The notes under the pieces were generated by a model that saw only the letters and a program-made list of their open reading frames with translations, was not told the origin of the DNA and did not search any database. From positions 84,274-148,273 of the forward strand of contig JAMCPX010000008.1 of assembly GCA_023382265.1 (NCBI GenBank): 64,000 bases of DNA. Direction: 5' to 3'. Origin of the DNA: Deltaproteobacteria bacterium (GTDB lineage: Bacteria; JAMCPX01). The position numbers were made by a program, and so were the translations under genes. This document shows, in pieces, positions 7,486 through 42,180 of this stretch (position 1 is its first letter; each line of letters begins with the position of its first letter).

Positions 7486-8877
7486 TCACTTTCCAATACA
7501 AAATTCGGAAAAGATCTTATCAAGTATATCTTCCGGCGTAATCTCACCGGTTAGCTCACTAATTGCCATTATAGCACTATCAACCTCTTCTGCTATAATT
7601 TCAGGAAAAGCCTGTTGAGCAAGTAATTCAATTGCATTTCTTAGTGCCAATTCAGTGTGTTCCATTGCTTGTTTATGTCTTTCTCTGCTTATAACAAGAT
7701 TACCCTCTATATCTGATTTTGTCTGATACAAAGAGATAGCACGTTCTAATTCATCCAGCCCCTGCTTTGTCTTTGCTGATATTGTAAATACCTGGTAAGG
7801 GCTGAATAGTGTTCTAATCCTTTTTATTTCTTCTATATCTTTACATACATCTATCTTATTAATAAGCACAATCACCTTCTGCATATCAATTCCTTGTATA
7901 ACTAAAAGCTCTTCTTCTAAGGATACTTTTTTTAAAGGATCTATTACTATTGCATTAATATCTGCCTGTTTTATCAATGTTTTTGTCATCTCAATCCCCA
8001 ACTTTTCAACAAGTTCCTCACTTTTTCTTAACCCGGCTGTATCTATCAATACAATCTTTTTACCCTGATAATTTATTGATTCCTGAATATAATCCCTTGT
8101 AGTGCCTGGATGTTCCGTGACAATCGCCCTACTCTCTCCTAACATAGCATTAAAGATACTGGATTTACCAACATTTGGCTTACCTATAAAAGCGACCTTT
8201 ATTCCTTCTTTTATTATTTTTGCGTGTTCATAACTATTTAATATATAAGCAGTCTCGTCATGAGCTGCCTGTAATATGATGCCTAATTCTAAAACCCCTT
8301 TTGGCTTTACATCTTCTTCTGGAAAATCAATCATTACTTCAAGATGTGATTTTACCTGTAAAAGCTTTTCTTTAATCCCTAGAATATACTCTGATAAAAG
8401 CCCTTTCAGATGACTCATTGCCTGCTGTCTTGAAGCTTCTGTATCAGACTTTATAAGATCCAGTACTGCCTCTGCTTGTAAAAGGTCCATCTTGCCGTTT
8501 AAAAATGCCCTTCTTGTAAATTCACCTTTTTGGGCAGGTCTTGCTCCGGCTTGTATTACCTGTTTTAAAACTGCCTGCATAACGCCGGAACTGCCGTGCG
8601 TATATATTTCAGCCATGTTTTCACCGGTATAGGTCTTCGGGCTTTTCATATATGCAAGCATTACGTTATCTATTGTTTTGCCTGATGTATCATTTATATC
8701 ACCATAATATAGTGAATGACTTTTAAAAGCTTTTACATGTTTTCTGGATTTAAATAAATTTTTTATAATGTGTAATGTAAGTTCCCCACTGATTCTAATT
8801 ATACCGATTGCCCCTTCTCCAGATGGCGTAGCAATGGCTGTAATTGTATCGCTATTAAAAAAGTCTTTTTTTTTCAT
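7486..8877 (-). CDS. mnmE: tRNA modification GTPase MnmE (TrmE)
   Basis: Has a G-domain (GKPNVGKSS), the C-terminal CIGK motif and is about 460 aa long. It is divergent from dnaA. Confidence 0.95.
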   Translation of the reverse strand: MKKKDFFNSDTITAIATPSGEGAIGIIRISGELTLHIIKNLFKSRKHVKAFKSHSLYYGDINDTSGKTIDNVMLAYMKSPKTYTGENMAEIYTHGSSGVMQAVLKQVIQAGARPAQKGEFTRRAFLNGKMDLLQAEAVLDLIKSDTEASRQQAMSHLKGLLSEYILGIKEKLLQVKSHLEVMIDFPEEDVKPKGVLELGIILQAAHDETAYILNSYEHAKIIKEGIKVAFIGKPNVGKSSIFNAMLGESRAIVTEHPGTTRDYIQESINYQGKKIVLIDTAGLRKSEELVEKLGIEMTKTLIKQADINAIVIDPLKKVSLEEELLVIQGIDMQKVIVLINKIDVCKDIEEIKRIRTLFSPYQVFTISAKTKQGLDELERAISLYQTKSDIEGNLVISRERHKQAMEHTELALRNAIELLAQQAFPEIIAEEVDSAIMAISELTGEITPEDILDKIFSEFCIGK

Positions 8878-8967
8878 TAAAAAACAAAGCGGCCTTTCAT
8901 ATTTTTTATAATCTTCATTAATAAAAACTCATAATATTGACAATGTCAATATTTGGATAAAAATTGC

Positions 8968-8995
8968 TTGACAATGCCTATAAGGGGCATAATAT
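8968..8995 (+). promoter_or_regulatory. Sigma70-like promoter candidate upstream of dnaA (TTGACA-N16-TAATAT), second copy of a tandem TTGACAATG repeat
   Basis: A -35 TTGACA sits at 8968-8973 and a -10 TAATAT at 8990-8995. A similar TTGACAATGTCAATAT element lies about 25 nt upstream. Confidence 0.35.
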
Positions 8996-9168
8996 AATTT
9001 ATGTATAATTTATGATTATCTTTATTTTTCAATAAGTTATATGGCTTTCTACAAGTTGTGGTTATGGATAATACTTATACTATATATTGGTTTTAAAAAG
9101 ATGAATTATAAATGTTTAAAAACACATAATACAGCTATATATCTAATTAAAAGATATAGCTTTTTTAG

Positions 9169-9188
9169 TTTTCCACAGGTGTGGAAAA
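9169..9188. promoter_or_regulatory. Palindromic pair of DnaA boxes (TTTTCCACA gg TGTGGAAAA)
   Basis: TTTTCCACA fits the TTWTNCACA DnaA-box consensus, and two inverted copies sit about 85 nt upstream of the dnaA start. This is the expected autoregulatory or origin site. Confidence 0.5.
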
Positions 9189-9269
9189 AGTTGTGTGTAA
9201 CATTTTTTGATTTATTCTTTGATCTCAATAAGTTACAAACTGAATTATATGTTAATGATAGGTGAACGT

Positions 9270-10574
9270 ATGAAAACATGGGAAACTATAAAACAAACGC
9301 TTATAAATTTTTATAATGATTCAAGTGTTGATCCGTGGCTAAACACCTTAAATGTAATAAGTTTTGATAATAATTCTCTTATCATTAGTGTTCCTGATCA
9401 ATTTTCTTATGATTGGATTAAAAACCATTTTTTAAATGATATAATCCGCGTAGTAAGAGATATTAATGGTAATGAAATAGAGGTATCTCTTATTTTAGAG
9501 GATGGAAAGACCGATGAAATAATTAATATTGCACCTATCAAAGATAATAAGTTTATAGACAAAGCAGCAGAGTTACGTGAAAAATATTCCTTGGAAAATT
9601 TTGTAGAAGGTGAATGCAATAAGTTTGCATTTGCTGCTGCACAGGCGGTGGCTAAGGGGCCGGGGCATACATACAATCCTCTGTTTATCTATGGTGGCGT
9701 TGGCCTTGGTAAAACTCATCTTGTGAATGCAATAGGGAATCACATAAAAAAAGAATATAAACTTTATGTTATATATGTATCTGCAGAAGCTTTTGTAAAC
9801 GATCTCGTGCACCACTTAAAAACTAACAAGATGGATAGTTTTAGGGAAACATATAGAAATTGTGATGTACTGCTGATAGATGATATAGAGTTTATATCAA
9901 ATAAAGAAAAAACGCAGGAGGAAATTTTTCATACATTTAATAAGCTCTATGAAGAAAAAAAACAAATCGTATTTACATCAGACAGATTGCCTAAAGAGAT
10001 ACCCGGTATAGAGGAAAGGCTTAGAAGTAGATTTGAAATGGGACTTATCGCCGATATCCAGGCTCCCGATGTTGAAACAAAGGTAGCTATAGTGAAGAAA
10101 AAAGCAGAACAAAATAACATTGATATAGATGATGATATAGCATTCTTTCTTGCTTATAACACATTATCCAACATTCGAGAACTTGAAGGATATTTAACAA
10201 GGCTGTCAGCTTATGCCTACCTTACTAAAACAAAATTAAATATAAACGTAGCCAAAGAGGTACTGGCAAGTGTTATTAAAAAGAAAGATAAATGGGTTAC
10301 GATAGAAGATATACAAAAAGCTATATCTATATATTTTAAGATTAAAGTGTCTGATCTGAATTCCCAAAAGAGGATGAGATATATAGCGTATCCAAGACAA
10401 ATAGCCATGTATTTGGCTAGAACTCTAACAAATGCATCATTTCCTGAGATAGGTACACAATTCGGGAATAAAGACCATTCTACAGTTATTCATTCTGTAA
10501 ATAAAATAGATAACCTGTATAAAACTGATCAAAGTGTTAAAGATGTTATTGAAAAGATCAAAAAAGGACTTTAA
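9270..10574 (+). CDS. dnaA: Chromosomal replication initiator protein DnaA
   Basis: Has the AAA+ domain (GGVGLGKTHL), the sensor motifs and the C-terminal DNA-binding domain (YPRQIAMYLAR...HSTV). The start was moved to ATG 9270 (MKTWETIKQ), which has an upstream GGTGA RBS. The ORF-track start at 9207 is an unlikely N-terminal extension. Confidence 0.95.
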   Translation: MKTWETIKQTLINFYNDSSVDPWLNTLNVISFDNNSLIISVPDQFSYDWIKNHFLNDIIRVVRDINGNEIEVSLILEDGKTDEIINIAPIKDNKFIDKAAELREKYSLENFVEGECNKFAFAAAQAVAKGPGHTYNPLFIYGGVGLGKTHLVNAIGNHIKKEYKLYVIYVSAEAFVNDLVHHLKTNKMDSFRETYRNCDVLLIDDIEFISNKEKTQEEIFHTFNKLYEEKKQIVFTSDRLPKEIPGIEERLRSRFEMGLIADIQAPDVETKVAIVKKKAEQNNIDIDDDIAFFLAYNTLSNIRELEGYLTRLSAYAYLTKTKLNINVAKEVLASVIKKKDKWVTIEDIQKAISIYFKIKVSDLNSQKRMRYIAYPRQIAMYLARTLTNASFPEIGTQFGNKDHSTVIHSVNKIDNLYKTDQSVKDVIEKIKKGL

Positions 10575-10768
10575 TAAAGTTATTTAAAACTTGTTGATAA
10601 GTATATTGTAATTATATATATGTAATTACAAACAGAAGTGTTAACACATTTTAAACTGAATTGTTTTAAAAATTTTTTATAAAAATTAAATAGATAAAAA
10701 ATATGAGTAGATTTTTAACAAACTTACTACTATGATTATTATATATTATCAAATACTAGGAGATAGTT
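10575..10768. other. AT-rich dnaA-dnaN intergenic region, candidate oriC/DNA-unwinding element
   Basis: The region is very AT-rich. It contains TGTTGATAA (reverse complement TTATCAACA, a near DnaA box). Its position between dnaA and dnaN is the most common bacterial oriC location. Confidence 0.4.
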
Positions 10769-11866
10769 ATGGAGTTTAGTATATTAAAAAAAGATTTTGT
10801 TTCCGCAATAAGTAAAGTGATCGGTGCAACAGAAAAAAAAGCAAGTATGCCGATATTATCCAATATTTTAATAAAAATAGAAAAAGATATTCTGACAATT
10901 ATAGGAACAGATCTTGAAGTTACAATTATCACTAAAATTAAGTGTAATAATATAGTTTCAGAAGGAAAAACGGTAGTACCAGCTAAAAAAATATTTGATT
11001 TTGTAAAAGAACTGCCCGAGAGTGAAATTAATATAAAAATAGAAGATGGATTGATAAATATGGTTATAGGAAAGATATCAGGTAAATTAAAAGTTTTACA
11101 AGCAGAGGACTTTCCTATGATAGAAGAGTACAAAGACGGTTTTACAAAAATTGATAACAACACTATTATGAAGACCATAGATAAAACGATATATGCTGCC
11201 TCTACTGATGAGGTTAGATACAGTTTGAACGGTATATTTTTAGAAAAATATATAAATAAATTAAGATTTGTGGCTACGGATAGTCATAGAATGGCTTTGT
11301 GTGATTTAAAAGAAGTAAATAGTATAGAAGGTTTAACAAAAGGGGTTATAATACCAAGAAAAGGCTTATATGAAATGAGAAAAATAAACAGCGATAATGA
11401 CGTTGAAATTGCTATTGATAAAAATAAAAATTTTATAGTAAGAATAGGTGATACTACAATACAGATGAGACTGTTGGATTATGATTTTCCTGATTATAAA
11501 CCTGTTATACCAAAAGAAACAAAGGTTAATATAAAAATAAATAAAAATATTTTAGCATCAGCAATAAAGAGGGCTCAATCTATATATCAGGATAAAATAA
11601 CAAGAATCATATTCAATGTTAATAATAAGACTCTTACCATAGAAAGTAGTGAGTCTGATACGGGTGAGGCAAAAGAAGAAATAGAGATAGACTACAATGG
11701 TGAACCTTTAACAATAGGCTTTAATGGAAGATATGTATTAGACTGCTTAAACACAATAGAAAGTGATTTTATAATAATTGGTTTGAATAATGATCAAAGT
11801 GTTGCAACAATTATACCGGAAGAAGATAAATTACATTATAACCTTATTATGCCTATGAGAATATAG
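10769..11866 (+). CDS. dnaN: DNA polymerase III beta sliding clamp DnaN
   Basis: Is 365 aa long with the N-terminal MEFSILKKDF...PILSNILI motif and three beta-clamp domains. Confidence 0.95.
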   Translation: MEFSILKKDFVSAISKVIGATEKKASMPILSNILIKIEKDILTIIGTDLEVTIITKIKCNNIVSEGKTVVPAKKIFDFVKELPESEINIKIEDGLINMVIGKISGKLKVLQAEDFPMIEEYKDGFTKIDNNTIMKTIDKTIYAASTDEVRYSLNGIFLEKYINKLRFVATDSHRMALCDLKEVNSIEGLTKGVIIPRKGLYEMRKINSDNDVEIAIDKNKNFIVRIGDTTIQMRLLDYDFPDYKPVIPKETKVNIKINKNILASAIKRAQSIYQDKITRIIFNVNNKTLTIESSESDTGEAKEEIEIDYNGEPLTIGFNGRYVLDCLNTIESDFIIIGLNNDQSVATIIPEEDKLHYNLIMPMRI

Positions 11867-13901: not shown

Positions 13902-14300
13902 TCACTTCAGACTTTTGATATAAGCAATAATATCGTCGATCTCTATAGGACTGAGCTTACCTTTAAAAGAAGGCATGACATGTGCGGGAAAACCTTTTAC
14001 ATTATAATCGTCCGGATCAAGGATCTTGTTCTTTATAAATTTATCATCAACAACTATCTTTTCTTCTTTTCCACCTATGTTAACGAATTCTTTTTTACCA
14101 TACAAACCCTTGTAAGATGGTCCCACAAGTGTAGTACCATTGGCAGTATGGCATGCTGTACAACCTTTTTCTTGAACAATCTGTAAACCTTTTGCAGCAC
14201 TACCTTCTGCTACCTTTGCTCCCATAGCCTGAGAAACAACCGAAATTCCTGCTATAATCATTATAGCCATAAGCACTGTAAACTTTATTCTTTTTACCAT
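13902..14300 (-). CDS. Monoheme class I c-type cytochrome (periplasmic)
   Basis: Has a signal peptide, a single CTACH heme motif, the GPSYKGLYG cytochrome-c fold signature and a distal Met (HVMPSF). The start was set at ATG 14300 (MVKRIKF), which is preceded by a GGAGG RBS. Confidence 0.8.
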   Translation of the reverse strand: MVKRIKFTVLMAIMIIAGISVVSQAMGAKVAEGSAAKGLQIVQEKGCTACHTANGTTLVGPSYKGLYGKKEFVNIGGKEEKIVVDDKFIKNKILDPDDYNVKGFPAHVMPSFKGKLSPIEIDDIIAYIKSLK

Positions 14301-14381
14301 ATCATCCTCCTGATAACTAAAATATATGTGCTTCTTAAACCAACAGAGGTACATATAAAATTATTGTTCTTATAATACAAA

Positions 14382-15827
14382 CTAAAACAAATATTCAAGT
14401 TTTATTGCAGTTACATCAAAATCAGACGGTGATATATTTGATGTTGGGACTTGAGCAAGTGCTGCATATTGTGCAACCCCTGGGTTATACTTCATAAAGA
14501 ATGAATGTTCCAACAGTAAATTGACATTCTGGTATGGATACCATGATAGTCCTGCAACAAGAGATTGGACATCCATATCACTTACCTGAGAGGAGCTTGT
14601 TGAAAGATACTTTACATATGCCCCATAAGTTCTCTTGTAATAATAATCTGCCATAACACCCAGGCCGTTCCTGCTCACAGAGGTACCACTGTTCGAAAAA
14701 CTGGTTCCGGAGTACTGATCTACTCCATAAAACTTACTATCATTCTCTGATTGATAAAGTACATAAAGTTCTGCAAGATTGTTGTTGGCAAGATACTGTG
14801 CCTGCAGGTCAACGCCATAGTTCGTATAATTATCAAGATAATTTGGATTTACCAGAGATGAAATAGGCTGAGTCATCCTCTCATTGCCAAAATATCCGAA
14901 TCCGCCGATTTCTACATATACATTATTAAACTCAGGTAAGTAATAAGACACGCGAACACCGGGATCAACAGTGCTTGAGCCATTGAATACCCCGGTTCCA
15001 GCCACTCCTCCCTGAACATATCCGGTCAAGGTTTGATTTTTTGTAGGATGATATGCCCCTACACACGCGTAAAGGCCGCCATCAGTAAAGTCACCCCACA
15101 TACCATATAATTCACCACCTTCTACAAATGCCGTGTTTGTATCAAGTAAGGTATTGTGTGTGCTCATGCCCATAAGTGTAGATGTTAATCCCCACATGCC
15201 AAATGTATTTGAAGGATCTGCCATACCAACCGTATCAACAGCTCTGAATCCATAGCTTAAAGTTTTCCCTGCAAATGTTGTATCTGATCCTACAAATGCA
15301 AGATCAAAGATACCTAAACCAAGGGTTCCGCCTTCATCATTAATACCTGTTAATTCAATTAATGTACCAATATGAGGACCAATCTTTCCTCCTACATATA
15401 TACTGGAGTCAGCAAGCAGGTTAAGAACATCCGTATCTCCATACCCTGAAGGATATGAAACAAAGCCCTGTCCTCCTGTCGCGATACCTCTTGGAACAAT
15501 GCCGTTGTTCCCGCCCTGCTGATTATTCCATCTGGCAACCAGTCTTGCCGACAGCATTGGAACCTTGTTGATTGCAAGTCCAGGCATGGATTTATCATCA
15601 GACTTTATCTGATCTACATAGTCTATCGTATAACCATGAAGTTTAAAATTCCTGCCAAATGGTGTTAGATGAGGGAAAACAGTGTGACACACATCACAGG
15701 CAAGACCTGTTTGTCTTGCAAAACTCGGTACTGCTTTGGCGTTTTTCGGTAAGCCGATCGTCATAACAAAGACCAACCCTGATAACACTATAACCGTTCC
15801 TAATTTACTTAAAACATTCTTTTTCAT
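14382..15827 (-). CDS. Fused monoheme cytochrome c / outer-membrane beta-barrel protein (Cyc2/Cyt572-like candidate)
   Basis: Has a signal peptide, then a single CDVCH motif about 12 aa into the mature protein. The remaining ~430 aa is rich in G/Y/S/T/N with the alternating pattern typical of beta-strands and a C-terminal ...LEYLF aromatic terminus, the outer-membrane beta-barrel signature. Confidence 0.7.
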   Translation of the reverse strand: MKKNVLSKLGTVIVLSGLVFVMTIGLPKNAKAVPSFARQTGLACDVCHTVFPHLTPFGRNFKLHGYTIDYVDQIKSDDKSMPGLAINKVPMLSARLVARWNNQQGGNNGIVPRGIATGGQGFVSYPSGYGDTDVLNLLADSSIYVGGKIGPHIGTLIELTGINDEGGTLGLGIFDLAFVGSDTTFAGKTLSYGFRAVDTVGMADPSNTFGMWGLTSTLMGMSTHNTLLDTNTAFVEGGELYGMWGDFTDGGLYACVGAYHPTKNQTLTGYVQGGVAGTGVFNGSSTVDPGVRVSYYLPEFNNVYVEIGGFGYFGNERMTQPISSLVNPNYLDNYTNYGVDLQAQYLANNNLAELYVLYQSENDSKFYGVDQYSGTSFSNSGTSVSRNGLGVMADYYYKRTYGAYVKYLSTSSSQVSDMDVQSLVAGLSWYPYQNVNLLLEHSFFMKYNPGVAQYAALAQVPTSNISPSDFDVTAIKLEYLF

Positions 15828-16116
15828 TAGCTCCTCCTTCTTAAGTTAAAAGATGACTGTTTTTATATGCTATTCAAAATTTGTGTCAACAATTTGGTTT
15901 ACAATATGCTTCGTATCCGTGGCCGATATACAGGAGAGGTTATTTGTAGAAGAATATATAAAAAACAAAGTAATCAATTATATAATATTCAAATATCTAT
16001 TGCTTAAAAATTCAAACAAGAATAAAAAAACAAAAGATAAAGAAAAACTTGACTTAATAGATTATATATAGACTTTACAATATAATATAAAAACTAATAA
16101 AGGAAGATTTTTTGTT

Positions 16117-16824
16117 ATGAATATTAAAAGGTATATAATTGCAGGATTGTTTACTACACTTATTACAACGACAGTACACGCCGGGCAAAATGCCTGTATT
16201 ACCTGCCACGAGTCTCTTGGTGGAACGATCGCCGCACCTGTTATACACTGGAAGGGCTCTATACACTCGCAAAACGGCGTAACATGTAATTCATGTCACG
16301 GTGGTAATCCTGATGTTAAAACAGGGAATATAAAATTTTTATCACCTGCTGAATTTAGTAATATACAGGCTCATGCAATGTCAAAAGCAAGCGGGTTTAT
16401 TGGTATACCATCAGGCAAAACGATGTTTGATATGTGTGGGAAATGTCATACGGATTCAGTAAATATGTATGCCAACAGTATAATGGGTGTCGCATATTTA
16501 GAAAATAAAGGCGGTCCATCATGCGCAACCTGTCATAATAGCCATGATAATGTTATTCCTGCTGTGCCGAAGGTATGTGAGCAATGCCATAAAGATATAA
16601 CGGGTTTTGATCAGATATCCCCTATGAATGTTTCCGATGCAACAATTCATGACCTTTCTATGCTAAGGATACATATCGAACAAAAGAAGGTGGAGGGTAA
16701 TAAGCTGCCCATATTCAGCAAGGAGCTCGCTTCATTTCAGATCGGATTTGTAGCATGGGGAGCAGTGCTTTTACTGTTGATAGTCTCGTTCATCATCTAT
16801 ATCGTACTCGAGAAGAGGAGTTAA
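16117..16824 (+). CDS. Pentaheme c-type cytochrome with C-terminal membrane anchor
   Basis: Has a signal peptide, five CxxCH motifs (CITCH, CNSCH, CGKCH, CATCH, CEQCH) and a C-terminal hydrophobic helix. It is the first gene of the bc-type complex operon. Confidence 0.85.
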   Translation: MNIKRYIIAGLFTTLITTTVHAGQNACITCHESLGGTIAAPVIHWKGSIHSQNGVTCNSCHGGNPDVKTGNIKFLSPAEFSNIQAHAMSKASGFIGIPSGKTMFDMCGKCHTDSVNMYANSIMGVAYLENKGGPSCATCHNSHDNVIPAVPKVCEQCHKDITGFDQISPMNVSDATIHDLSMLRIHIEQKKVEGNKLPIFSKELASFQIGFVAWGAVLLLLIVSFIIYIVLEKRS

Positions 16825-16825
16825 T

Positions 16826-17089
16826 ATGTCATTTGAGATCATTCACGAAAATAAACCATCATACTCTAAACCGGCAGGTGTTGTAATTGTATTCTTATCC
16901 CTCCTGCTTCTTGTTATGGCTGTTTTTTTTGCTTATCTGTTTATATCGGGCAAGGGTACCGACTATATAATGGGTACTATTCTTGCTTTTGAATTCTTAA
17001 TCTCGGGTATACTGCTGATTCTTTTTGCTAAATATTTTATTTCATTTAGGCACGTGGCAGAAGATCGTAAGGAGGAATTCTTATGGTAG
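16826..17089 (+). CDS. Small two-TM membrane protein (possible accessory subunit of the Rieske/cyt b complex)
   Basis: Is translationally coupled: its ATG 16826 lies directly after the upstream stop, with an AGAGGAG RBS. It is 87 aa with two hydrophobic helices. Confidence 0.5.
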   Translation: MSFEIIHENKPSYSKPAGVVIVFLSLLLLVMAVFFAYLFISGKGTDYIMGTILAFEFLISGILLILFAKYFISFRHVAEDRKEEFLW

Positions 17090-17703
17090 ATAACCATACA
17101 AATGATCCATTTGGCGACGGTAACAAAGGAATAACACGCAGGAAGTTTATTCTTAGTATAATACTTGTAGCAATAGCCGGTGCATTCGGATCCATATTAT
17201 CATTGCTTAAGGTTTTGTCACCTTCAAAAAAAGGTGCCGGATATGTATCAACCATAGTTTCGGGTGATAAGCTTTTATACGCGTCCGGGAATCAAGTTGG
17301 TTCTGTAATAAAAGCTTCTGCCATGGGGGTTGGGGACGCTGTGCTTGCATATCCTATTGGTAAAACATCTAACCCGGCAAACCTTGTGCAGCTGATTAAA
17401 TTAGAGGAAAAAGATTTTCAGCCTCCAACGGATATTAAGTTTACAGACAAGGGGTTTGTCGCGTACAGTGCAATATGTACACATCTTGGATGCACAGTTT
17501 CATGGGTTAACAATAAAAATGCGCCTACGCACTCTTACTCAGAGTGTTTTTGTCATAACAGTATTTTTAATCCGGAAAAGGGTGCAAAGGTTATTGGCGG
17601 TCCTGCACCTGTGCCGCTTGCACAAATAGGCATAAGGGTTGATAGCGATGATTCTTTAGTTTTTACTAGCGGTTTTAATGGTCCAATAGGACCACAGGTA
17701 TAA
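17083..17703 (+). CDS. Rieske [2Fe-2S] iron-sulfur subunit with twin-arginine signal
   Basis: Has an RRKFIL Tat motif plus TM anchor and the Rieske boxes CTHLGC and CFCHNS. An AAGGAGG RBS precedes it, and the start overlaps the upstream stop. Confidence 0.9.
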   Translation: MVDNHTNDPFGDGNKGITRRKFILSIILVAIAGAFGSILSLLKVLSPSKKGAGYVSTIVSGDKLLYASGNQVGSVIKASAMGVGDAVLAYPIGKTSNPANLVQLIKLEEKDFQPPTDIKFTDKGFVAYSAICTHLGCTVSWVNNKNAPTHSYSECFCHNSIFNPEKGAKVIGGPAPVPLAQIGIRVDSDDSLVFTSGFNGPIGPQV

Positions 17704-17724
17704 AAAAATAATGAGGTAACTGAT

Positions 17725-18984
17725 ATGCTTTTTGATTGGTTTGAACAAAGACTGGAACTTAAAAAATTTAAAGAAAAATATTTAACAAAAACTTTTCCAA
17801 CGCATCCTACATTTCTATTGGGAGAGATAGCTCTTTTTTCTTTTATAACCCTGGTTATAACAGGCATATTTCTCGGGTTCCTTTATGAGCCATCAACGAA
17901 GCTTACACCGCTTTTTAGTGCCATGGTTCCGGCAGCATATGCGAGTGTTGTTAAAATAGATCTTATTCCTCTCGGCATGATCATAAGGCGCATACATCAC
18001 TGGTCTGCAATGATTATGATAGCCTCTATTTTAGCACACTTATTAAGGGTTTATTTTACTTCCGCTTATAGGAAACCGCGAGAGATAAACTGGTTTATAG
18101 GACTTGCATTATTTGGTCTTTCGCTCTTTGCTGCATTTACAGGCTATCTCCTGCCATACAGCAATTTCTCTGTAACGGCTACATCTATTGGCTATTATAT
18201 AGCCAAGTCGGTACCATGGATTGGAGGCTGGGTATCAAGATTGGTATTTGCAGGAGAATTCCCTTCTGATGCAACTGTCCCAAGGTTCTTCTTTTTACAC
18301 GTCATGCTTATCCCCATACTTCTTTTAAGCCTTATAGGTTTGCACATGATGATCCTCGTAAAACAAAAGCATACAGAACCTCTTGCAAATAAATCCAAGA
18401 AAGAGGCAGAAAACGGTAAAAGACTTATTGGTATCCCAATCTGGCCTGAGCAAACCATCATCAGTGTATCTTTTTATTTCTTTTTACTGTTTATAATTAT
18501 ACTGATTGCGACCAACATACCTCTTAATCCTATAGAGGCATACGGCCCTCCTTCACCGGGAACGCCGGTTATGAGACCAGATTGGTATTTCTTAATGATC
18601 TATGGATTTTTAAAACTGATTCCGGGAGATTTGTCTTTTAGTATTCTCGGCGGCAAGTTCACACCGGAAACGATCGGCGGTGTACTATTTCCTTCTGTGC
18701 TAATATTGGCCATTATCCTTATTCCTTTTCTTGACAGAGCTAAAGAGCCTGTAAGCTACATAGAAAATCCATTACATAGGCCATTTATGACTTCAATAGG
18801 ACTTACAGGAATTACTTTTACATCAATGCTTGTAGTTGCAGGTTATATCGATGTGCTTCATATAAAGCCAAAAGCTATGCTTATATTGTTAGCAGTTACA
18901 AGTGTTTCAATGTGGGTAATCTCTTATTTCCTTTTAAGGTTTTACAATAATAGAAGAAATAACGGAGGGAACAATGTTAAATAA
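17725..18984 (+). CDS. Cytochrome b (long form, b6 plus subunit-IV-like fusion) of a bc-type complex
   Basis: Carries the RRIHHWSAMIMI...HLLR heme-ligand helix motifs, is 419 aa, and has at least 8 TM helices. Confidence 0.9.
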   Translation: MLFDWFEQRLELKKFKEKYLTKTFPTHPTFLLGEIALFSFITLVITGIFLGFLYEPSTKLTPLFSAMVPAAYASVVKIDLIPLGMIIRRIHHWSAMIMIASILAHLLRVYFTSAYRKPREINWFIGLALFGLSLFAAFTGYLLPYSNFSVTATSIGYYIAKSVPWIGGWVSRLVFAGEFPSDATVPRFFFLHVMLIPILLLSLIGLHMMILVKQKHTEPLANKSKKEAENGKRLIGIPIWPEQTIISVSFYFFLLFIIILIATNIPLNPIEAYGPPSPGTPVMRPDWYFLMIYGFLKLIPGDLSFSILGGKFTPETIGGVLFPSVLILAIILIPFLDRAKEPVSYIENPLHRPFMTSIGLTGITFTSMLVVAGYIDVLHIKPKAMLILLAVTSVSMWVISYFLLRFYNNRRNNGGNNVK

Positions 18985-19753
18985 ACCCAATATAGGTCTA
19001 TTTGTTCTATTAAGTATATGTGTGTCTTTATCAAACGCGGGCTACGCTTCACAGAACAATAATGCTCATGTAAAAAATACATGCGTTATATGCCACTCTA
19101 AAATATCGGGCGAAACCTTTGTAGGAATCAAATCGCACTCATGGGAGAATTCTATTCATCAAGAACACGGTATAACCTGTAATCAATGCCATGGTGGAAA
19201 CCCGAAGGCAATTACAACCGCAAAGGCACATATTGGTGTATTAGGTTCAAGCAATCCGGATAGCGGTGTGTATTATAAGAATATCCCAAAGACATGCGGC
19301 AGATGTCATAATAAAGAACTTTACAAGTATACGGAAAGCAATCATTTTAAAAAGCTTGAAGCAACTGGACAGGGGCCTAATTGTGTAACATGTCATGGTT
19401 CTATGGTAACAACAATATTAACGCCGGACGATATGGCAAACGTATGTGATAAATGTCATAACACAAGGATTGGTGTTTTTCCCTATATCCCCGAGAAGGC
19501 AAAGGCTGTCCTGATGTTGCTTGATACAGAAGGATCCCTTATCGCCGCAGATGAAAAGATATACAGCAGCAGTAAAGAAGATATGCAGATATTGCAAAAA
19601 GCGAAGAGCCAGTTTTCTAATGCGAAACTCGAATGGCATGCATTTGACCTGGATAAAATAACAAAATATCTTCAAAATACAGAAGAAATCCTAAAAGAGT
19701 TAAGCAAGCCTCCGGTACAAACAAGCCCGGTAAGCAAACAGCATAATAAATAA
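18974..19753 (+). CDS. Pentaheme c-type cytochrome
   Basis: Has a signal peptide and five CxxCH motifs (CVICH, CNQCH, CGRCH, CVTCH, CDKCH). Its start overlaps the cyt b stop, and a GGAGGG RBS is present. Confidence 0.85.
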   Translation: MLNKPNIGLFVLLSICVSLSNAGYASQNNNAHVKNTCVICHSKISGETFVGIKSHSWENSIHQEHGITCNQCHGGNPKAITTAKAHIGVLGSSNPDSGVYYKNIPKTCGRCHNKELYKYTESNHFKKLEATGQGPNCVTCHGSMVTTILTPDDMANVCDKCHNTRIGVFPYIPEKAKAVLMLLDTEGSLIAADEKIYSSSKEDMQILQKAKSQFSNAKLEWHAFDLDKITKYLQNTEEILKELSKPPVQTSPVSKQHNK

Positions 19754-19996: not shown

Positions 19997-20003
19997 GCAT
20001 TGC

Positions 20004-20093
20004 GGAGAGGTACCGAAGTGGTCATAACGGGCCCGCCTCGAAAGCGGGTATCCTGGGCAACCGGGAACGTGGGTTCGAATCCCACCCTCTCCG
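20004..20093 (+). tRNA. tRNA-Ser (anticodon CGA)
   Basis: A cloverleaf is readable: acceptor GGAGAGG/CCTCTCC, D-arm, anticodon stem CCCGC/GCGGG with loop CUCGAAA (anticodon CGA), a long variable arm (class II), T-arm GTGGG-TTCGAAT-CCCAC and discriminator G. CCA is not encoded. Confidence 0.9.
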
Positions 20094-20237
20094 TTAATGA
20101 GGGATGGCACTGTTTAATCCAAAAAAAGTGCAGCAGGAAAGTTTGCCTTTTAATTTTTCAAATACATTATTCCGGCTGGCTTATTTTTACTTGAATTATC
20201 GGTGTTTTTATTCTATCCTCCTTAAAAGAGGTATTCT

Positions 20238-36946: not shown

Positions 36947-38269
36947 TTGCAAAAGCTGCAAGTAAATTTTATACTGCCGCCGATGGATAGAAAGCTCTTA
37001 AATGAATACGATAAGCCTGCGAAAGAGCATTATTACATACTTTTCTTGAGCTGGGCAGGCTGGGTGTTTGACTTTTATGATCTTACACTCTACACTTTTC
37101 TCCTTATACCAATAGGTAAAGAACTTCACCTGACCAACATGCATCTTTCTTATATACTCGGCATTTCATTAGCTGCTACGGCCATCGGCGGTATACTATT
37201 TGGAGTACTTGCCGATTATTTCGGCAGGCGCAGCGTTTTGCAATGGACTATCATTACTTACAGTATCGGTACATTCTTGAGCGGTCTTGCACCGGATTTT
37301 AATTTCTTGATATTATTTAGAATAATTACCGGTATCGGTGTTGGCGGAGAATGGGCAACGGGTCAAACTTATGTGGGGGAGACGTTCCCGCCTAATGTAA
37401 GGGGCAGATTTGGGGCATTCATGCAGACAGGTGCACCGGTAGGTGTAGCTCTTGCAGCACTTGTTGGAGGGTTCTTATCTCCATTGATAGGCTGGCGTGC
37501 CTCATTTATGATTTCTGTACTCCCCGCCGTGCTTGTTATCATAATAAGAAGAAAGCTGCCCGAATCTGACTTATGGGAAGAACGCAAACGTTTGATAAGT
37601 TTAAATCAAGTATCATCGCAGGTTATAAAAGAGGAGACCGGCAATAACTTTTTAGAGCTGTTTTCCAAAAAATATGTTGGCATGTTTATAAAGGCGCTCC
37701 TGCTCGGCATATTCCTTATGTCTGCTTACTGGTTTACGTACTCATGGTTACCCGGTTACCTTTATGAACAAAGACATTTTTCAATTACGAAATCGGGTTT
37801 GTGGATGATCATTACACAAACAGGCGGTTTTATAGGTTATGGCACTTTTGGCTTTGTAGCCGACAGGCTGGGTAGAAGACCCGCGTTTACAATATACGCA
37901 TTTTTGATGGCAGCAGGACTTGTTATGATAACATTGATGTGGAGTTTTATTGCCAGTTATCCTTACATAATTCTTGTATTCATGTTTATGGTAGGTTTTG
38001 GTACTGGATTTTTTAGCGGCTATGGCCCGCTTATGTCGGAATTATTCCCTACAAAAATCCGGAACACAGCCATGGGAACTGCATTTAATCTTGCGCGGGG
38101 AATCCAGTTCTTCACACCAGTTATAATTGTTATTGTGTCAAGGTATTATGGGCTTGGCGGCGGGATATCTATTGCTGCACTTTTCGCCATACTCGTAGGA
38201 TTATGGGTATGGGTATTCCCGGAGACGAAAGGTAAAAAACTTACAGCGTTAACCCAAAAAATGGAATAG
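36947..38269 (+). CDS. MFS transporter
   Basis: Has 12 predicted TM helices and the MFS signature GRR-like motif (FGVLADYFGRRSV). Confidence 0.85.
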   Translation: MQKLQVNFILPPMDRKLLNEYDKPAKEHYYILFLSWAGWVFDFYDLTLYTFLLIPIGKELHLTNMHLSYILGISLAATAIGGILFGVLADYFGRRSVLQWTIITYSIGTFLSGLAPDFNFLILFRIITGIGVGGEWATGQTYVGETFPPNVRGRFGAFMQTGAPVGVALAALVGGFLSPLIGWRASFMISVLPAVLVIIIRRKLPESDLWEERKRLISLNQVSSQVIKEETGNNFLELFSKKYVGMFIKALLLGIFLMSAYWFTYSWLPGYLYEQRHFSITKSGLWMIITQTGGFIGYGTFGFVADRLGRRPAFTIYAFLMAAGLVMITLMWSFIASYPYIILVFMFMVGFGTGFFSGYGPLMSELFPTKIRNTAMGTAFNLARGIQFFTPVIIVIVSRYYGLGGGISIAALFAILVGLWVWVFPETKGKKLTALTQKME

Positions 38270-38275
38270 GACACA

Positions 38276-39073
38276 ATGTTTACCTTTCTACAAGCCTCTC
38301 CCAATGACGGGTCGTCTGCGGAACAGCACACAATACCTCCACAGGCCATTCATAAGTTCGCGGTCGTAATACCGGTCTATAATCATGAATCCAGGCTCAG
38401 GGCTGTCGTTGAAAGCGCCATGAGCCTCCGCCTGCCGGTCTATGTCATAGATGACGGCTCAACGGACGCAACTCCAGGCATCCTGAAATCCATCCCTGGT
38501 ATAACGGTCATCAGTCATTCTACAAATCTCGGGAAAGGCGCAGCCCTCATGACCGGTTTCACGGAAGCTGCAAGGACGGCGGATTTCGCTATCACGATAG
38601 ACGCAGATGGCCAGCATGACCCGGCAGACGCCGTTCATCTTATGGCCCCTTTGCAATCCGGTATCCATGCGATTGTTATCGGCAGGCGGGAAAACATGCT
38701 GAACGATACGAGAATAAAATGGACCAGCCGCTTTGGAAGAAAATTTTCGAACTTCTGGGTGCGTATGTCCGGAGGGCCCGTGCTGTCGGACACACAGAGC
38801 GGGTTCCGCATATATCCAATCCATGAAATACTGGGCATTAAGTCGGTGTCCAGACGGTTCCAATTTGAGGTGGAAATAGTTGTGCTTGCGCATTGGAAGA
38901 GCATACCGATCGTTGAGGTCCCGGTCAAAGTGCTGTATCCATCAAAACAAGACCGTATATCCCATTTCCGTCCCTTCGTTGATTTCTGGAGGAATGCAGG
39001 GACGTTTACCATGCTGATTGCCATGAGGATCCTTTTGCCGTTGAAGTTGAGGCGGAGGCTGATACAAAAATGA
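38276..39073 (+). CDS. Family 2 glycosyltransferase (polyprenyl-phosphate sugar transferase, DPM1/ArnC-like)
   Basis: The FAVVIPVYNHE...IDDGSTD motif is the GT-A DxD region. A C-terminal amphipathic TM tail is present. This is the first gene of the higher-GC block. Confidence 0.85.
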   Translation: MFTFLQASPNDGSSAEQHTIPPQAIHKFAVVIPVYNHESRLRAVVESAMSLRLPVYVIDDGSTDATPGILKSIPGITVISHSTNLGKGAALMTGFTEAARTADFAITIDADGQHDPADAVHLMAPLQSGIHAIVIGRRENMLNDTRIKWTSRFGRKFSNFWVRMSGGPVLSDTQSGFRIYPIHEILGIKSVSRRFQFEVEIVVLAHWKSIPIVEVPVKVLYPSKQDRISHFRPFVDFWRNAGTFTMLIAMRILLPLKLRRRLIQK

Positions 39074-42000
39074 ACGGGCAATCATCCTTGATCAGATGGA
39101 AGGCCGTTGTCGTGGTCATACTTGCGTTTACAGTTTTATATATAGCCGGGGTGCACGGCCTCACGATAGAAACCGATATAACAGCAAGCCTGCCCAAAAA
39201 TGATCCGGTCATTGCGGATGCCCGGTACGTTATCACCCATTATCCTGTATTTGACCGTGTTTTCATCGACATTGGTGTGACCAAGCAACATACGGATGAC
39301 GGGCTTCTTATGACCGCTGCAACATATATGCAGCAGGGGCTGCGTGCAAGCGGACTATTTAAAGAGGTGGGATTAGGCACATCGGTCGATGCCATGCCGC
39401 TCCTCTTGTCACATATAGTCTCCAACCTCCCGTCGATGTTTTCCCTGAAGGAACTGGAGACCTCGGTCCTCCCGTTATTGGGCAGCGCTTCGCTCCGATC
39501 TCTCATGGATCGAAACATGGATATCCTGCAGGGGCTTGAGGGTATGGGCCAGTCCGGTTTGATCGCCCGAGATCCCCTGGGACTCAGGAACATTGTACTG
39601 GCACGTATGGCATCACTCCTGCCTGTTCACGGTGCCACCATTAACAATAACTTTATTATGAGCAGGGACAGAAGGCACATCCTTATCATCGCAGAGCCAA
39701 AACAATCCTCGACAGATACTAACTTTGCATTGAAAATAAATGCACTTATAAACAAGCTGATCGCCGAAATAGATCAAAAAGCCGGAGGAGCACAACAACA
39801 AATCTCAATCACACCGATCGGCTCATACCGTGCGGCTATCGACAATGAAACCATTGCCAGAAGGGATACGATGCGTGCACTGCTCCTCTCTACGATTGGG
39901 ATCGCACTGCTTCTTTTGATCAGTTTCCCCAGATGGTATATAGGACTTATGGCACTTGTCCCGGCCCTGGCCGGGACAAGTGCGGCACTCTTTGTTATGT
40001 CGCTCCTCAGGCATAATTTATCCATTCTTGCCATCGGCTTCGGCGGGGCCATTATCTCTATCAATGTTGATTACGGTATTGCATATCTTCTGTTTCTCGA
40101 TCAGGCGCAAACAACCTCCGGAACCTACGCATCAAGGCAGTCGTTCTGGGTTGGGCTTGGAGCGTCTCTAACCACAGTGGGCTCGTTTCTTGCATTGAGT
40201 TTCAGCGGGTTTCCAATCCTTGCCGAGATAGGCTGGTTTACCGCCATGGGCACACTCTTTTCTTTTGCATTTGTCCATACGATATTCCCGCTGGTTTTCC
40301 GCAGGGTATCCCCTGCCAGGCACCGCGGCATTATGCCCATGGAAAAGATCACGAGCCGCCTGGTACTATCGAGTGGATGGACCGCGTTTATTGTGGCAGG
40401 TATCTTCGGACTGGTTATGGCATTTTTTGCCAGGCCCGCGGTAAAAGCCGATGTGGAGGCCATGAACACGGAGAGTGCGGCTACGCATATTGCGGAAAGT
40501 AATGTAAAGAAAACATGGGGAGACATACTATCGGACACCACGTACATCCTTATCCAGGGAAGTTCTGTTAAATCGCTGCAGGACCGTGCAGACAGGCTTG
40601 ATACCTTTATCAGGGCTCGTATGGCATCCGGTGTTGTCCGCTCCGGGTTTTCGCCATTGTCTATTTTTCCCGGTGAGGCCCTGGCTCGGAAGAACGAGGC
40701 CGCGTGGAAAGCCTTCTGGACAACACAGCGGGTTCAATCCCTGCGCGGTAAAATCGCACATGTTTCAAAGCTTGTCGGTTTTTCCCATAATGCCTTTGAG
40801 CCGTTTTTTGAGAAACTCATGGTCCGCAGAGCTTATGATACAGCTATTCCCCGGCAACTTTACGGGATGCTCGGCATATCAAGGGGCTGGGACAACAATA
40901 CATGGATGATGATAAGTGCCGTGCGGCCTGGACCGTACTATAATCCGGAGATATTCTATAAGAATCTTTCCGGAGCAGGCATAGGTAAAATGCTTGATGC
41001 CCATTGGTTCACCGTACGGTTATCAAATCTGCTTTTCACTATGTTCGTTAGAATGGGCATACTGTGCGGAGTAGGTCTTGTCGTGGTTCTGGTGTTTTAT
41101 TTTATGGATTTTATACTGGTAATACTTGCATTGGTCCCGGTTGCATTTGCCCTGGTGAGTACCTTCGCGACATACCATTTTCTGCATCGACCCCTGGACA
41201 TTCCGAGTCTGTTGCTGGTTGTGGTCGTGTTCGGTATGGGAAGCGATTATTCCATCTATTTCATCGGGGCATATCAGCGTTATTTTGATGAACACGACCC
41301 TGCCATGAGTCCCATACGTACCGCGGTCTTCCTCAATGCAGGTTCCACCATTACCGGCCTCGGCGTTCTGGCATTTGCAGGACAGGCCATGCTGAAGAGT
41401 GCTGGACTGAGCATGGTGCTCGGGCTTGGCTATGCCCTTATCGGAACAGTTACACTTCTGCCGCCGATACTGAGGGTTCTTTACGCACCAAGGAAAAAAG
41501 GAATTATGCCGGCGGTTGCAGCGGGCTCTCCTGAACATAGAGCAAGGGTATTGTCCTCGTATAGATACATGGAGACATACGTCAGGATGTTTGCCAGGTT
41601 CAAGATCAAGTTTGACCCGATGTTTTCACAGCTCGCGGATTTTGTCGGGCCCAAGGATAAGGTTATGGATCTCGGATGCGGGTACGGCGTTCCTTCTGCG
41701 TGGCTGATGCATCTTTACCCTTCCGTGTATTTGTTCGGTGTGGATCCGAATCAAGACCGTGTGCGGGTCGCGCGGAGAGCATTGGGTGATCGCGGGACCG
41801 CTGTCCATGGCGAGGCGCCTGATTTCCCGAAGCCTCCGCATGCATGCGATGCAGTCCTCATGCTCGACATAATCCATTATCTTTCCGATGAGGAATTTGC
41901 GCAAACACTTGCATCCTCGTCTTCCTGTCTTAAGCCCGGGGGATCCGTGGTGATCAGGGCGACAGTCCCTTCATCAAAACATGTGCCGTGGGAACGGTGG

Positions 42001-42180
42001 CTGGAGCAGAGCAGGCTCACACTCAGGGGGCAAAAATATTATTTCAGGACCAGCGAAAGTATCGTTCAGATTATCTCAAAGGCCGGTTTCACCCTGACAT
42101 ATTCCGGCGATTCTGCGAAGGGAAGAGAGGAGACCTGGTTCGTCTGCATGACAGTGGAGCACAGCCAAGAGCCGCTATGA
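39070..42180 (+). CDS. MMPL/RND-superfamily exporter (COG4258-like) fused to C-terminal class I SAM-dependent methyltransferase
   Basis: Has two 5-6 TM bundles, each preceded by a large periplasmic loop (the MMPL topology). The C-terminal ~190 aa has MTase motifs I (VMDLGCGYG), II (DAVLMLDIIHYL) and III (LKPGGSVVI). Confidence 0.8.
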   Translation: MNGQSSLIRWKAVVVVILAFTVLYIAGVHGLTIETDITASLPKNDPVIADARYVITHYPVFDRVFIDIGVTKQHTDDGLLMTAATYMQQGLRASGLFKEVGLGTSVDAMPLLLSHIVSNLPSMFSLKELETSVLPLLGSASLRSLMDRNMDILQGLEGMGQSGLIARDPLGLRNIVLARMASLLPVHGATINNNFIMSRDRRHILIIAEPKQSSTDTNFALKINALINKLIAEIDQKAGGAQQQISITPIGSYRAAIDNETIARRDTMRALLLSTIGIALLLLISFPRWYIGLMALVPALAGTSAALFVMSLLRHNLSILAIGFGGAIISINVDYGIAYLLFLDQAQTTSGTYASRQSFWVGLGASLTTVGSFLALSFSGFPILAEIGWFTAMGTLFSFAFVHTIFPLVFRRVSPARHRGIMPMEKITSRLVLSSGWTAFIVAGIFGLVMAFFARPAVKADVEAMNTESAATHIAESNVKKTWGDILSDTTYILIQGSSVKSLQDRADRLDTFIRARMASGVVRSGFSPLSIFPGEALARKNEAAWKAFWTTQRVQSLRGKIAHVSKLVGFSHNAFEPFFEKLMVRRAYDTAIPRQLYGMLGISRGWDNNTWMMISAVRPGPYYNPEIFYKNLSGAGIGKMLDAHWFTVRLSNLLFTMFVRMGILCGVGLVVVLVFYFMDFILVILALVPVAFALVSTFATYHFLHRPLDIPSLLLVVVVFGMGSDYSIYFIGAYQRYFDEHDPAMSPIRTAVFLNAGSTITGLGVLAFAGQAMLKSAGLSMVLGLGYALIGTVTLLPPILRVLYAPRKKGIMPAVAAGSPEHRARVLSSYRYMETYVRMFARFKIKFDPMFSQLADFVGPKDKVMDLGCGYGVPSAWLMHLYPSVYLFGVDPNQDRVRVARRALGDRGTAVHGEAPDFPKPPHACDAVLMLDIIHYLSDEEFAQTLASSSSCLKPGGSVVIRATVPSSKHVPWERWLEQSRLTLRGQKYYFRTSESIVQIISKAGFTLTYSGDSAKGREETWFVCMTVEHSQEPL

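Follow-up and report, generated by a model that had tools for sequence, protein, structure and literature searches.

Cyc2, a monoheme cytochrome fused to an outer-membrane porin, serves more widely than any other gene as a marker of microbial iron oxidation. Keffer et al. (PMC8406198) recognise members of the family by a signal peptide, one CXXCH motif for heme binding, the sequence AxPxFAR[Q/K][T/Y] upstream of this, PxL four positions downstream, a size of 365 amino acids or more and a 16-strand porin like OprO and OprP. In models of iron oxidisers, a periplasmic cytochrome carries the electrons that Cyc2 takes up to a bc1 complex for reverse electron transport (PMC7029218). This inner-membrane partner has so far been assumed in such models and never genetically linked to Cyc2, and in Leptospirillum the iron-oxidation genes are not clustered (PMC10654088). 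The DNA considered here, called the window, is a stretch of 64,000 nucleotides from contig JAMCPX010000008.1 of a deltaproteobacterial metagenome-assembled genome (MAG; GCA_023382265.1). It also corresponds to bases 87859-151858 of contig JAJYST010000005.1 in the MAG GCA_021793435.1, which NCBI labels "Deltaproteobacteria bacterium", and an assembly of run SRR10244963 has the same sequence. Between positions 13902 and 19753 the window carries a Cyc2-family gene and a gene for a periplasmic cytochrome c, divergent from a five-gene operon that encodes an inner-membrane Rieske/cytochrome b complex with ten c-type hemes, hereafter the decaheme operon. Cyc2 genes are recurrently linked with this complex and with other Rieske/cytochrome b complexes.

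The locus comprises seven genes. On the minus strand lie the gene for a periplasmic monoheme class-I cytochrome c (13902-14300; 132 amino acids from the ATG at 14300, which is also the public start, within an open reading frame (ORF) that reaches 14354) and the gene for the Cyc2-family fusion of a monoheme cytochrome with a 16-strand outer-membrane porin (14382-15827; 481 amino acids, one CXXCH). They are separated from the decaheme operon by a divergent intergenic region (15828-16116) of 289 nt with 23.5% GC, against 40% in the whole window. The operon, on the plus strand, encodes pentaheme cytochrome c subunit 1 (16117-16824; 235 amino acids, starting with a signal sequence and anchored in the membrane by a C-terminal segment), a small DUF7318-like membrane subunit with two helices (16826-17089; 87 amino acids), a Rieske [2Fe-2S] subunit with a twin-arginine signal/anchor (17083-17703; 206 amino acids), an unsplit cytochrome b of the menaquinol or "green" type (17725-18984; 419 amino acids) and pentaheme cytochrome c subunit 2 (18974-19753; 259 amino acids, with a signal or anchor at the N-terminus and about 90 residues of helical tail at the C-terminus). 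Its genes are separated by gaps of 1, -7, 21 and -11 nt and, because they abut or overlap, are read as a translationally coupled operon. All seven ORFs are also called as genes in the public annotation, and Pfam and NCBIfam agree on the cytochrome c, Rieske, cytochrome b and multiheme c3/c7-type domains. Counts of the CXXCH motif are one in the cytochrome c, one in the porin-cytochrome and five in each pentaheme. ORFs, motif counts and GC content thus bear out the gene content, the heme numbers, the divergent layout and the AT-rich spacer described in an earlier note on this DNA, and the arrangement over outer membrane, periplasm and inner membrane that it proposed is real. A tRNA-Ser gene follows the operon at 20003-20094; one tRNA is the sole Rfam match in the window.

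Judged by every testable criterion of sequence and modelled fold, the 481-residue protein is a true member of the Cyc2 family. A hydrophobic segment at residues 4-28, modelled as a helix at 2-24 and followed by AKA/VPSF, has the character of a signal peptide. The only CXXCH (C44-D-V-C-H48) lies near the N-terminus in the sequence AVPSFARQT-GLA-CDVCH-TVF-PHL, which contains the family's upstream motif and, as P52-H-L, the downstream one; the protein ends in YLF. This heme-domain motif is invariant in an alignment of 29 subfamily members. The AlphaFold2 model (predicted template modelling score, pTM, 0.72; predicted local distance difference test, pLDDT, 66; heme domain at low confidence) has 16 long strands, and its Foldseek matches are 16-strand porins, namely OmpF (2.9e-9), OprP (2o4v, 1e-7) and OprO (4rjx). 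The Cyc2 heme motif rules out an ordinary porin. Profile searches of the porin-cytochrome against Pfam and NCBIfam gave no match, and a 48%-identical homologue carries the Joint Genome Institute name iron:rusticyanin reductase. The close subfamily, at 43-61% identity, is found in MAGs from acid-mine drainage, in Ca. Kryptonia, Ignavibacteriales and Hydrogenobaculum, and in the strictly anaerobic Desulfurella.

The neighbouring monoheme cytochrome c matches PF00034 (6.2e-10) and has a hydrophobic, signal-like N-terminus ahead of its one CXXCH. Small cytochromes c adjoin Cyc2-like genes in many genomes, those of Hydrogenobaculum and Desulfurella included, an association that mirrors the known cyc2-cyc1 pairing. 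Several acid-mine MAGs hold two or three Cyc2-like paralogues, typically one on a Rieske/cytochrome b operon and the others alone: WY2.bin60 (loci L020, L024 and L035), DBS2-1.bin76 (L012, L016), clean1809 (L014, L023) and STS170223_bin_85 (L010, L026). At L035 the Cyc2-like gene is broken into two ORFs of 164 and 358 amino acids, by a frameshift or an assembly error.

At the core of the inner-membrane complex, the cytochrome b matches PF13631 (1.4e-50) and has the two histidine pairs for hemes bL and bH (helix B carries RRIH-x13-H, helix D carries LH-x14-H) and the P(E/D)WY motif of a bc-type cytochrome b, here as the Qo motif PDWY within RPDWYF; the heme-ci position has no cysteine. Its N-terminal half matches the ExtP model (2.6e-48). 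The top NCBIfam model is actinobacterial QcrB (2.8e-89), at a score under the cut-off (300 bits versus 500), and the nearest solved chain is Corynebacterium QcrB (7q21_B, 1.3e-57). The Rieske protein matches PF00355 and has the twin-arginine export motif TRRKF and the cluster-binding motifs CxHxGC and CxCH, as CTHLGC and CFCHNS. It scores 90 bits against NCBIfam QcrA, where the cut-off is 275, and its nearest solved relative is the Rieske protein of Thermus thermophilus (1nyk/3fou, 1e-19). The core is taken to be of the menaquinol type because the cytochrome b, with its PDWY motif, is nearest to actinobacterial QcrB and the Rieske subunit to the Thermus protein. Pfam and NCBIfam find no cytochrome c1 domain among the seven proteins, and NCBIfam finds no diheme QcrC at the operon. 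A classical cytochrome bc1 was rejected, the c-type subunits being two pentahemes with cytochrome c1 absent, and an actinobacterial bcc complex (QcrABC) likewise, with QcrA and QcrB scores below cut-off and no diheme QcrC. The expectation that the inner-membrane partner would not be a classical bc1 was correct: it combines two pentahemes with a menaquinol-type core and lacks cytochrome c1.

The two pentahemes, which flank the Rieske and cytochrome b genes, are paralogues with 27-28% identity. Pentaheme 1 has c3/c7-type Pfam domains and a hydrophobic segment at residues 203-235; apart from the heme motifs, the residues that never vary among 26 orthologues are H50, H143, M88, M123 and M170. Pentaheme 2 conserves H55, H62, H86, H124, H222 and M144 in 14 orthologues, which suggests that its hemes are mostly bis-His, and the two proteins together would present a mix of His/Met and bis-His hemes. 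An AlphaFold2 model of pentaheme 1 (pLDDT 80) had no significant match among solved structures, the top one being NrfH (E = 0.63), and a sequence search returned only weak c7-type and OmcA matches; no solved structure resembles the pentahemes. The DUF7318-like subunit, with two hydrophobic segments, matches PF24002 at 1.9e-5, under the Pfam cut-off; all complete orthologous operons that were compared have its gene in the same place, after pentaheme 1 and before the Rieske gene.

The linkage of Cyc2 to such complexes was counted in both directions. Among 79 Cyc2-seeded loci from species-representative GTDB genomes, a Rieske/cytochrome b pair within 8 kb was scored in 20 (25%), at a median distance of about 1.9 kb; for a random gene, about 1-2% or less would be expected by chance, which is our rough estimate and not a computed null. 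In the reverse direction, 19 loci were found via the pentaheme gene, an unbiased seed, each extending 1.5 kb or more upstream, and two of them have a Cyc2-family neighbour at the operon. The decaheme operon adjoins a divergent Cyc2 gene in the window and in loci L010, L013, L171 and L172, where Cyc2 is 56-61% identical to that of the window. A second Cyc2 clade, with the same heme motif and only 26-27% identity to the first, adjoins the operon in three further loci: on the same strand and directly upstream in L081 (gap of about 140 nt) and L122, and divergent, with a gene for a 135-residue cytochrome c in between, in L119. The orthologous operons that adjoin Cyc2 stand at 50-78% identity. Co-occurrence in related genomes, proposed by the earlier note as a check, is therefore positive at L010, L013, L171, L172, L081, L119 and L122, and the genetic linkage of Cyc2 and Rieske/cytochrome b is non-random. 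Functional coupling is likely, because the operon adjoins two Cyc2 clades in three arrangements and because 20 of the 79 loci hold a Rieske/cytochrome b pair.

In L010, L013, L171 and L172, which represent four sister genomes, an operon of seven genes lies divergently opposite the decaheme operon, the two forming a 12-gene supercluster. The second operon reads cytochrome c, GltD-like flavoprotein, Rieske, cytochrome b, four- to five-heme cytochrome c, DoxX and Cyc2, and lies at 4364-11428 in L010, 4018-11458 in L013, 4189-11482 in L171 and 4017-11425 in L172. It encodes an NAD(P)H iron-sulfur flavoprotein of about 650 amino acids, a Rieske protein of 177 and a cytochrome b of 438 that is ExtP+ExtQ-like. 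A further complete copy, in L173 (3923-11395), does not have the decaheme operon alongside; in L009, L011, L012, L014 and L173, Cyc2 terminates the second operon or its recoverable part. The Rieske protein of the sister operon is nearest to PDB entries 9rk4 and 9rk3, whose molecule names seem to resemble Kuenenia annotations. The cytochrome c of the window shares 28% identity with the promoter-proximal cytochrome c in the second operon and, over 48 amino acids, 46% identity with the C-terminal domain of the multiheme subunit encoded there. What the window holds is a reduced form of a conserved supercluster, which is larger and has a second, NAD(P)H-linked Rieske/cytochrome b operon. Gene order speaks against a simple deletion derivative of the sister supercluster: in the window Cyc2 comes before cytochrome c, whereas in the sisters cytochrome c comes first and Cyc2 last.

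Other combinations were seen among the Cyc2 loci. The Desulfurella member of the subfamily has a cytochrome c and a Rieske/cytochrome b pair close by. Cyc2-like genes with no Rieske/cytochrome b neighbour occur in Hydrogenobaculum, in many Bacteroidetes MAGs and at L006. At L028 (2100-5947), a gene for a 574-residue cytochrome b with its own CXXCH lies directly upstream of a Cyc2 of another clade. In the Bacteroidetes MAG loci L043, L047 and L048, a set of cytochrome c, Rieske and cytochrome b genes is divergent from Cyc2, here too from outside the window's clade, at about 1.5 kb.

The decaheme operon itself is distributed far more widely. About 180 distinct homologues, 50-60% identical to pentaheme 1, fall under at least six phylum-level labels, among which are Nitrospirae, Ca. 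Sulfobium, Acidobacteria, Calditrichaeota, Desulfuromonadales and Syntrophobacteraceae; at 50% identity the family (E of 1e-30 or better) collapses to 11 clusters. Such conservation points to either strong structural constraint or recent horizontal spread of the operon. The order pentaheme, DUF7318, Rieske, cytochrome b, pentaheme is constant in about 35 metagenomic loci as far as the contigs permit, at 45-78% identity, and the orthologues come chiefly from anaerobe lineages and from sediment and wetland metagenomes. In most well-flanked loci, and also in one 3-Mb genome, the operon stands amid unrelated genes (L090, L093, L094, L097, L099, L101, L106, L107, L118, L121 and L170). It is thus a conserved autonomous module, usually without a nearby Cyc2. 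The combination of a pentaheme-Rieske-cytochrome b complex with Cyc2, put forward as a novel unit, was found, but the operon within it is widespread, self-contained and mostly free of Cyc2. In L110 and L114 the operon lacks Cyc2, and further multiheme cytochromes lie on its flanks: one with 7 hemes in 802 amino acids (L110, 7098-9506), and proteins with 12 hemes in 321 amino acids and 5 hemes in 173 amino acids (L114, 7331-8296 and 13834-14355). This suggests that they are alternative periplasmic or outer partners of the operon.

The intergenic region between the divergent units had been described as a shared AT-rich control region of about 290 nt. Its AT-richness stands; nothing demonstrates shared control. 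A promoter/terminator scan of 13.7-20.3 kb, which covers the motif search once recommended for 15828-16116, found 21 sites where 23.1 were expected, which is chance level, and repeats within the region are limited to short AT-rich matches, as chance predicts. Candidate elements upstream of the pentaheme gene are TTGACT (16049-16054) and a -10-like TACAAT (16076-16081). The heptamer CTTGACT occurs 63-68 nt upstream of the pentaheme start in the window, L010 and L013, and related elements (TTGATTAA / TTCGATTAA) precede the pentaheme gene in L122 and L119. With the promoter scan at chance level, these elements are putative, and the conserved CTTGACT is a lead only, not evidence for shared regulation. 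A public gene call inside the spacer, a Lys/Asn-rich ORF of 72 amino acids (15853-16071, plus strand) with no family match, is probably spurious.

The genome probably, though not provably, belongs to Ca. Acidulodesulfobacterales (SZUA-79 in GTDB). This placement is based on the 40% GC content, the acid-mine-drainage origin, the deltaproteobacterial label and the cyt572-like gene (PMC6776010). Its DnaA falls in a small deep clade at 64-69% identity, all else being at 51% or less, and the names of the sister MAGs (FK, DBS, WY, BP and others) fit a Chinese acid-mine-drainage series. In Ca. Acidulodesulfobacterales, a cytochrome bd quinol oxidase is the only oxidase reported, and a cyt572-like gene is among the top-20 transcripts of Ca. 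Acidulodesulfobacterium AP4 (PMC6776010). The Cyc2 proteins of SZUA-79 are of the Leptospirillum-type variant according to FeGenie; Cyc2 protein of the lineage was found in tailings alongside Dsr proteins, and also at a depth of 3.13 m, which is anoxic and where iron oxidation is unlikely (PMC13594681). The searched literature contained no description of the pentaheme-Rieske-cytochrome b operon, its linkage to Cyc2 or the 12-gene supercluster; papers on cable bacteria, Tenderiales and the evolution of bc complexes proved irrelevant. The claim that the unit had not been described holds to that extent, except that Cyt572-like (Cyc2) genes of the probable lineage had already been reported.

Taken together, the components are those of an entire three-tier path that would link the menaquinone pool with iron dissolved outside the cell. 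The Rieske/cytochrome b complex in the inner membrane would oxidise menaquinol through a Q-cycle, which a true Rieske protein with a full-length cytochrome b implies. Electrons would then enter the ten c-type hemes on the two pentahemes, one of them held by its C-terminal helix, and the class-I cytochrome c would shuttle them through the periplasm to Cyc2, whose monoheme cytochrome and 16-strand porin would swap electrons with dissolved iron at the outer membrane. If the flow is outward, quinol from the oxidation of sulfur, hydrogen or organic compounds would reduce soluble Fe(III), abundant and strongly oxidising at acid pH, as the terminal acceptor, with the Q-cycle conserving energy. The chain would in principle be reversible, taking electrons from Fe(II) inward given a cytochrome c oxidase or another sink. 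In the sister genomes, the second Rieske/cytochrome b complex with its flavoprotein might, speculatively, use the same high-potential outlet and drive the reduction of NAD(P)+ by electron bifurcation.

An exchange of electrons among the three tiers is probable. As an overall explanation, the quinol-to-iron path has in our judgement slightly less than an even chance. The direction of flow cannot be read from sequence; given coupling, the balance tips narrowly towards outward flow, from quinol to Fe(III). This lean is drawn from the menaquinol type of the complex and the occurrence of its orthologues mainly in anaerobes, from the bd quinol oxidase as the only oxidase reported for the probable lineage, and from the detection of the lineage's Cyc2 protein with Dsr proteins and at anoxic depth. 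It also draws on the sister flavoprotein complex, which makes sense only with an exit toward a high-potential acceptor, on the subfamily member in strictly anaerobic Desulfurella with its cytochrome c and Rieske/cytochrome b pair close by, and on a decaheme lipoprotein encoded beside a small outer-membrane barrel in another part of the window. The fuller proposal, in which Cyc2 of an acidophile lineage serves as an Fe(III)-reducing outlet, the decaheme complex supports iron respiration with a Q-cycle and the sister genomes bifurcate electrons onto NAD(P)+, is unlikely to hold in every part.

Several observations weigh against an outward path through coupled tiers. Seventeen of the 19 unbiased operon loci lack Cyc2, and 59 of the 79 Cyc2 loci lack a Rieske/cytochrome b pair. 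The units are divergent in the window, so co-transcription is not implied, and neither the promoter scan nor the cross-locus comparison established a regulator site in the intergenic region. The placement of the MAG in Acidulodesulfobacterales is circumstantial, and the published interpretation for that lineage is iron oxidation (PMC13594681, PMC6776010). All three Cyc2 members studied biochemically oxidise Fe(II) (PMC8406198). Pentaheme 1 has three invariant methionines, a hint of His/Met hemes of higher potential, and such hemes would also suit inward flow. These last points lead to the rival in which Fe(II) is oxidised: electrons would pass from Cyc2 through the cytochrome c to the decaheme complex, which would run in reverse on proton-motive force and reduce menaquinone; this uphill branch would feed NAD(P)H and CO2 fixation, and a separate cytochrome c oxidase, encoded elsewhere in the genome, would take the downhill branch. 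Beyond the methionines and the characterised Fe(II) oxidases, it draws on the agreement of the window protein with every testable feature of Cyc2, on the cyt572-like transcript of AP4 (PMC6776010), on the Cyc2 protein present in tailings (PMC13594681) and on the models that send Cyc2 electrons to bc1 for reverse transport (PMC7029218). Nevertheless, iron oxidation appears somewhat unlikely at this locus. No cytochrome c oxidase was found within the 64-kb window, and by our own bookkeeping a reverse Q-cycle combined with the bd oxidase reported for the probable lineage (PMC6776010) would translocate no net charge. By established bioenergetics, the uphill step would be about 0.2 V steeper at a menaquinol-type Qo site, as we infer here, than with ubiquinone. 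The orthologous operons occur mainly in anaerobes not known as iron oxidisers, and a reversal of the sister NAD(P)H-linked complex would use up NAD(P)H.

The adjacency might also be one of uncoupled neighbours, the operon being a general menaquinol:cytochrome c oxidoreductase that serves other periplasmic reductases, with Cyc2 and its cytochrome c acting independently. The eleven listed loci in which the operon stands alone, the Cyc2-like genes of Hydrogenobaculum, many Bacteroidetes MAGs and L006 with no Rieske/cytochrome b neighbour, and, in the window, the divergent orientation with promoter-like sites at chance level would all fit such independence. It is quite unlikely, since adjacency recurs with two Cyc2 clades in three arrangements, two of them co-directional at gaps of about 140 nt, the supercluster is kept in four sister genomes, and a quarter of the Cyc2 loci (25%) have the Rieske/cytochrome b pair nearby. 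Very improbable, in our view, is that the Cyc2-like protein of this acidophile and thermophile subfamily acts not on iron but on another redox-active metal in solution, arsenic or sulfur species or humic-type shuttles, in which case the chain would be a general conduit for soluble redox compounds outside the cell. Subfamily members do occur in Hydrogenobaculum and Desulfurella, neither of which is, to our knowledge, known as an iron oxidiser. Cluster 3 and divergent Cyc2 homologues have been flagged as those of most uncertain function (PMC8406198), but the heme-domain motif that is invariant in the subfamily is the signature of the iron-oxidase family, and the habitats are iron-rich acid-mine-drainage samples. 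The notion that the locus recapitulates the logic of iron-oxidation chains survives as regards its tiers; the analogy to iron oxidation is unproven, and flow may be outward.

Whatever the direction, the linkage described here is the first neighbourhood-level evidence that we have found for the partner of Cyc2, and it names concrete, testable proteins. The decaheme operon encodes an uncharacterised respiratory complex kept at 50% identity or more across several phyla. If the outward path is true, no earlier route of extracellular electron transfer would have been coupled to a proton-motive Q-cycle, and the sister genomes would have an iron-driven electron bifurcation at a bc-type complex, with the very high potential of acid-soluble Fe(III) sending the second quinol electron uphill onto NAD(P)+. 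It would account for "iron-oxidation" marker proteins in anoxic sulfate-reducing layers. A Cyc2 match may not mean iron oxidation. Where bd is the only oxidase reported for a lineage, this chain is better suited to Fe(III) respiration, which would alter the reading of metagenomic inventories of iron cycling in mine wastes and sediments.

Some other features of the window may be mentioned. A second candidate pair for extracellular electron transfer lies at 60976-62769 on the minus strand: a decaheme lipoprotein of 399 amino acids (lipobox IAGC, ten CXXCH) is encoded directly downstream of a 187-residue protein that resembles a small outer-membrane beta-barrel, with a weak OMP_b-brl match and a YYF end. 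The replication origin is probably at about 8800-11866, some 2-4 kb from the cytochrome module. This region contains dnaA (9207-10574) and dnaN (10769-11866), AT-rich spacers (26% and 18% GC) and DnaA-box-like 9-mers, and near 9 kb there is a local switch in the sign of the GC skew. At 38000-43000, in a window of 40% GC, a block of about 50% GC encodes a glycosyltransferase, a 1036-residue MMPL/methyltransferase-type protein and a lipid A acyltransferase-like protein and may have been horizontally acquired. A lesser rise in GC, at 21-23 kb, spans the gene for an AMP-binding enzyme.

Among known systems, the chain of Acidithiobacillus ferrooxidans (Cyc2, Cyc1-rusticyanin, CycA1 and the PetI bc1, from the rus and petI operons) is similar in having Cyc2, a periplasmic c-type carrier and a Rieske/cytochrome b partner. 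Osorio in 2013 and Kucera in 2016 reportedly proposed that it runs reversed in anaerobic sulfur oxidation with Fe(III). The window locus differs in that it has no rusticyanin or aa3 oxidase genes, its complex has two pentahemes and the DUF7318-like subunit in place of cytochrome c1, its cytochrome b is of the menaquinol type, and its Cyc2 and Rieske/cytochrome b genes are adjacent. The Cyt572/Cyt579/bc/cbb3 chain of Leptospirillum shares the acidophile setting, and the Cyc2 of the probable lineage is reported as Leptospirillum-type or cyt572-like (PMC13594681, PMC6776010). In Leptospirillum, however, the genes are unclustered (PMC10654088) and the chain is completed by a cbb3 oxidase, of which none is known here; the window protein has 481 amino acids and a standard CXXCH.

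The multiheme Rieske/cytochrome b complexes of anammox bacteria are alike in joining a Rieske/cytochrome b core to multiheme c-type subunits, and the sister operon adds a flavoprotein of the NAD(P)H type. Kuenenia is said to have two such complexes, R/b-2 and R/b-3, in accounts by Kartal in 2013 and de Almeida in 2016. Unlike these, the window operon lacks both the GltD-like iron-sulfur flavoprotein and an HAO-like subunit, carries its ten hemes on two paralogous pentahemes and has an outer-membrane partner. Actinobacterial bcc (QcrABC) offers the nearest solved cytochrome b, likewise unsplit, with H-x14-H in helix D and of the menaquinol type, but it differs in its diheme cytochrome cc (QcrC), in a QcrA with three transmembrane helices and in a QcrB of about 540 amino acids.

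The Cbc complexes and Ext cluster of Geobacter, with their porin-cytochrome conduits, also combine a b-type cytochrome and multiheme c-type subunits with extracellular transfer. In contrast to them, the window has a true Rieske protein and a full-length cytochrome b, and its outer component is a fused monoheme porin, whereas in Geobacter a larger porin encloses a multiheme cytochrome. MtrCAB, MtoAB and PioAB likewise transfer electrons across the outer membrane to or from iron. They do so with two separate proteins, a decaheme cytochrome and the porin of about 26 strands through which it is threaded. The outer-membrane protein of the window, unlike the MtrAB, PioAB or porin-cytochrome conduit (Pcc) type, unites its one heme and its 16 strands in a single polypeptide, and the ten hemes encoded beside it belong to the inner-membrane complex.

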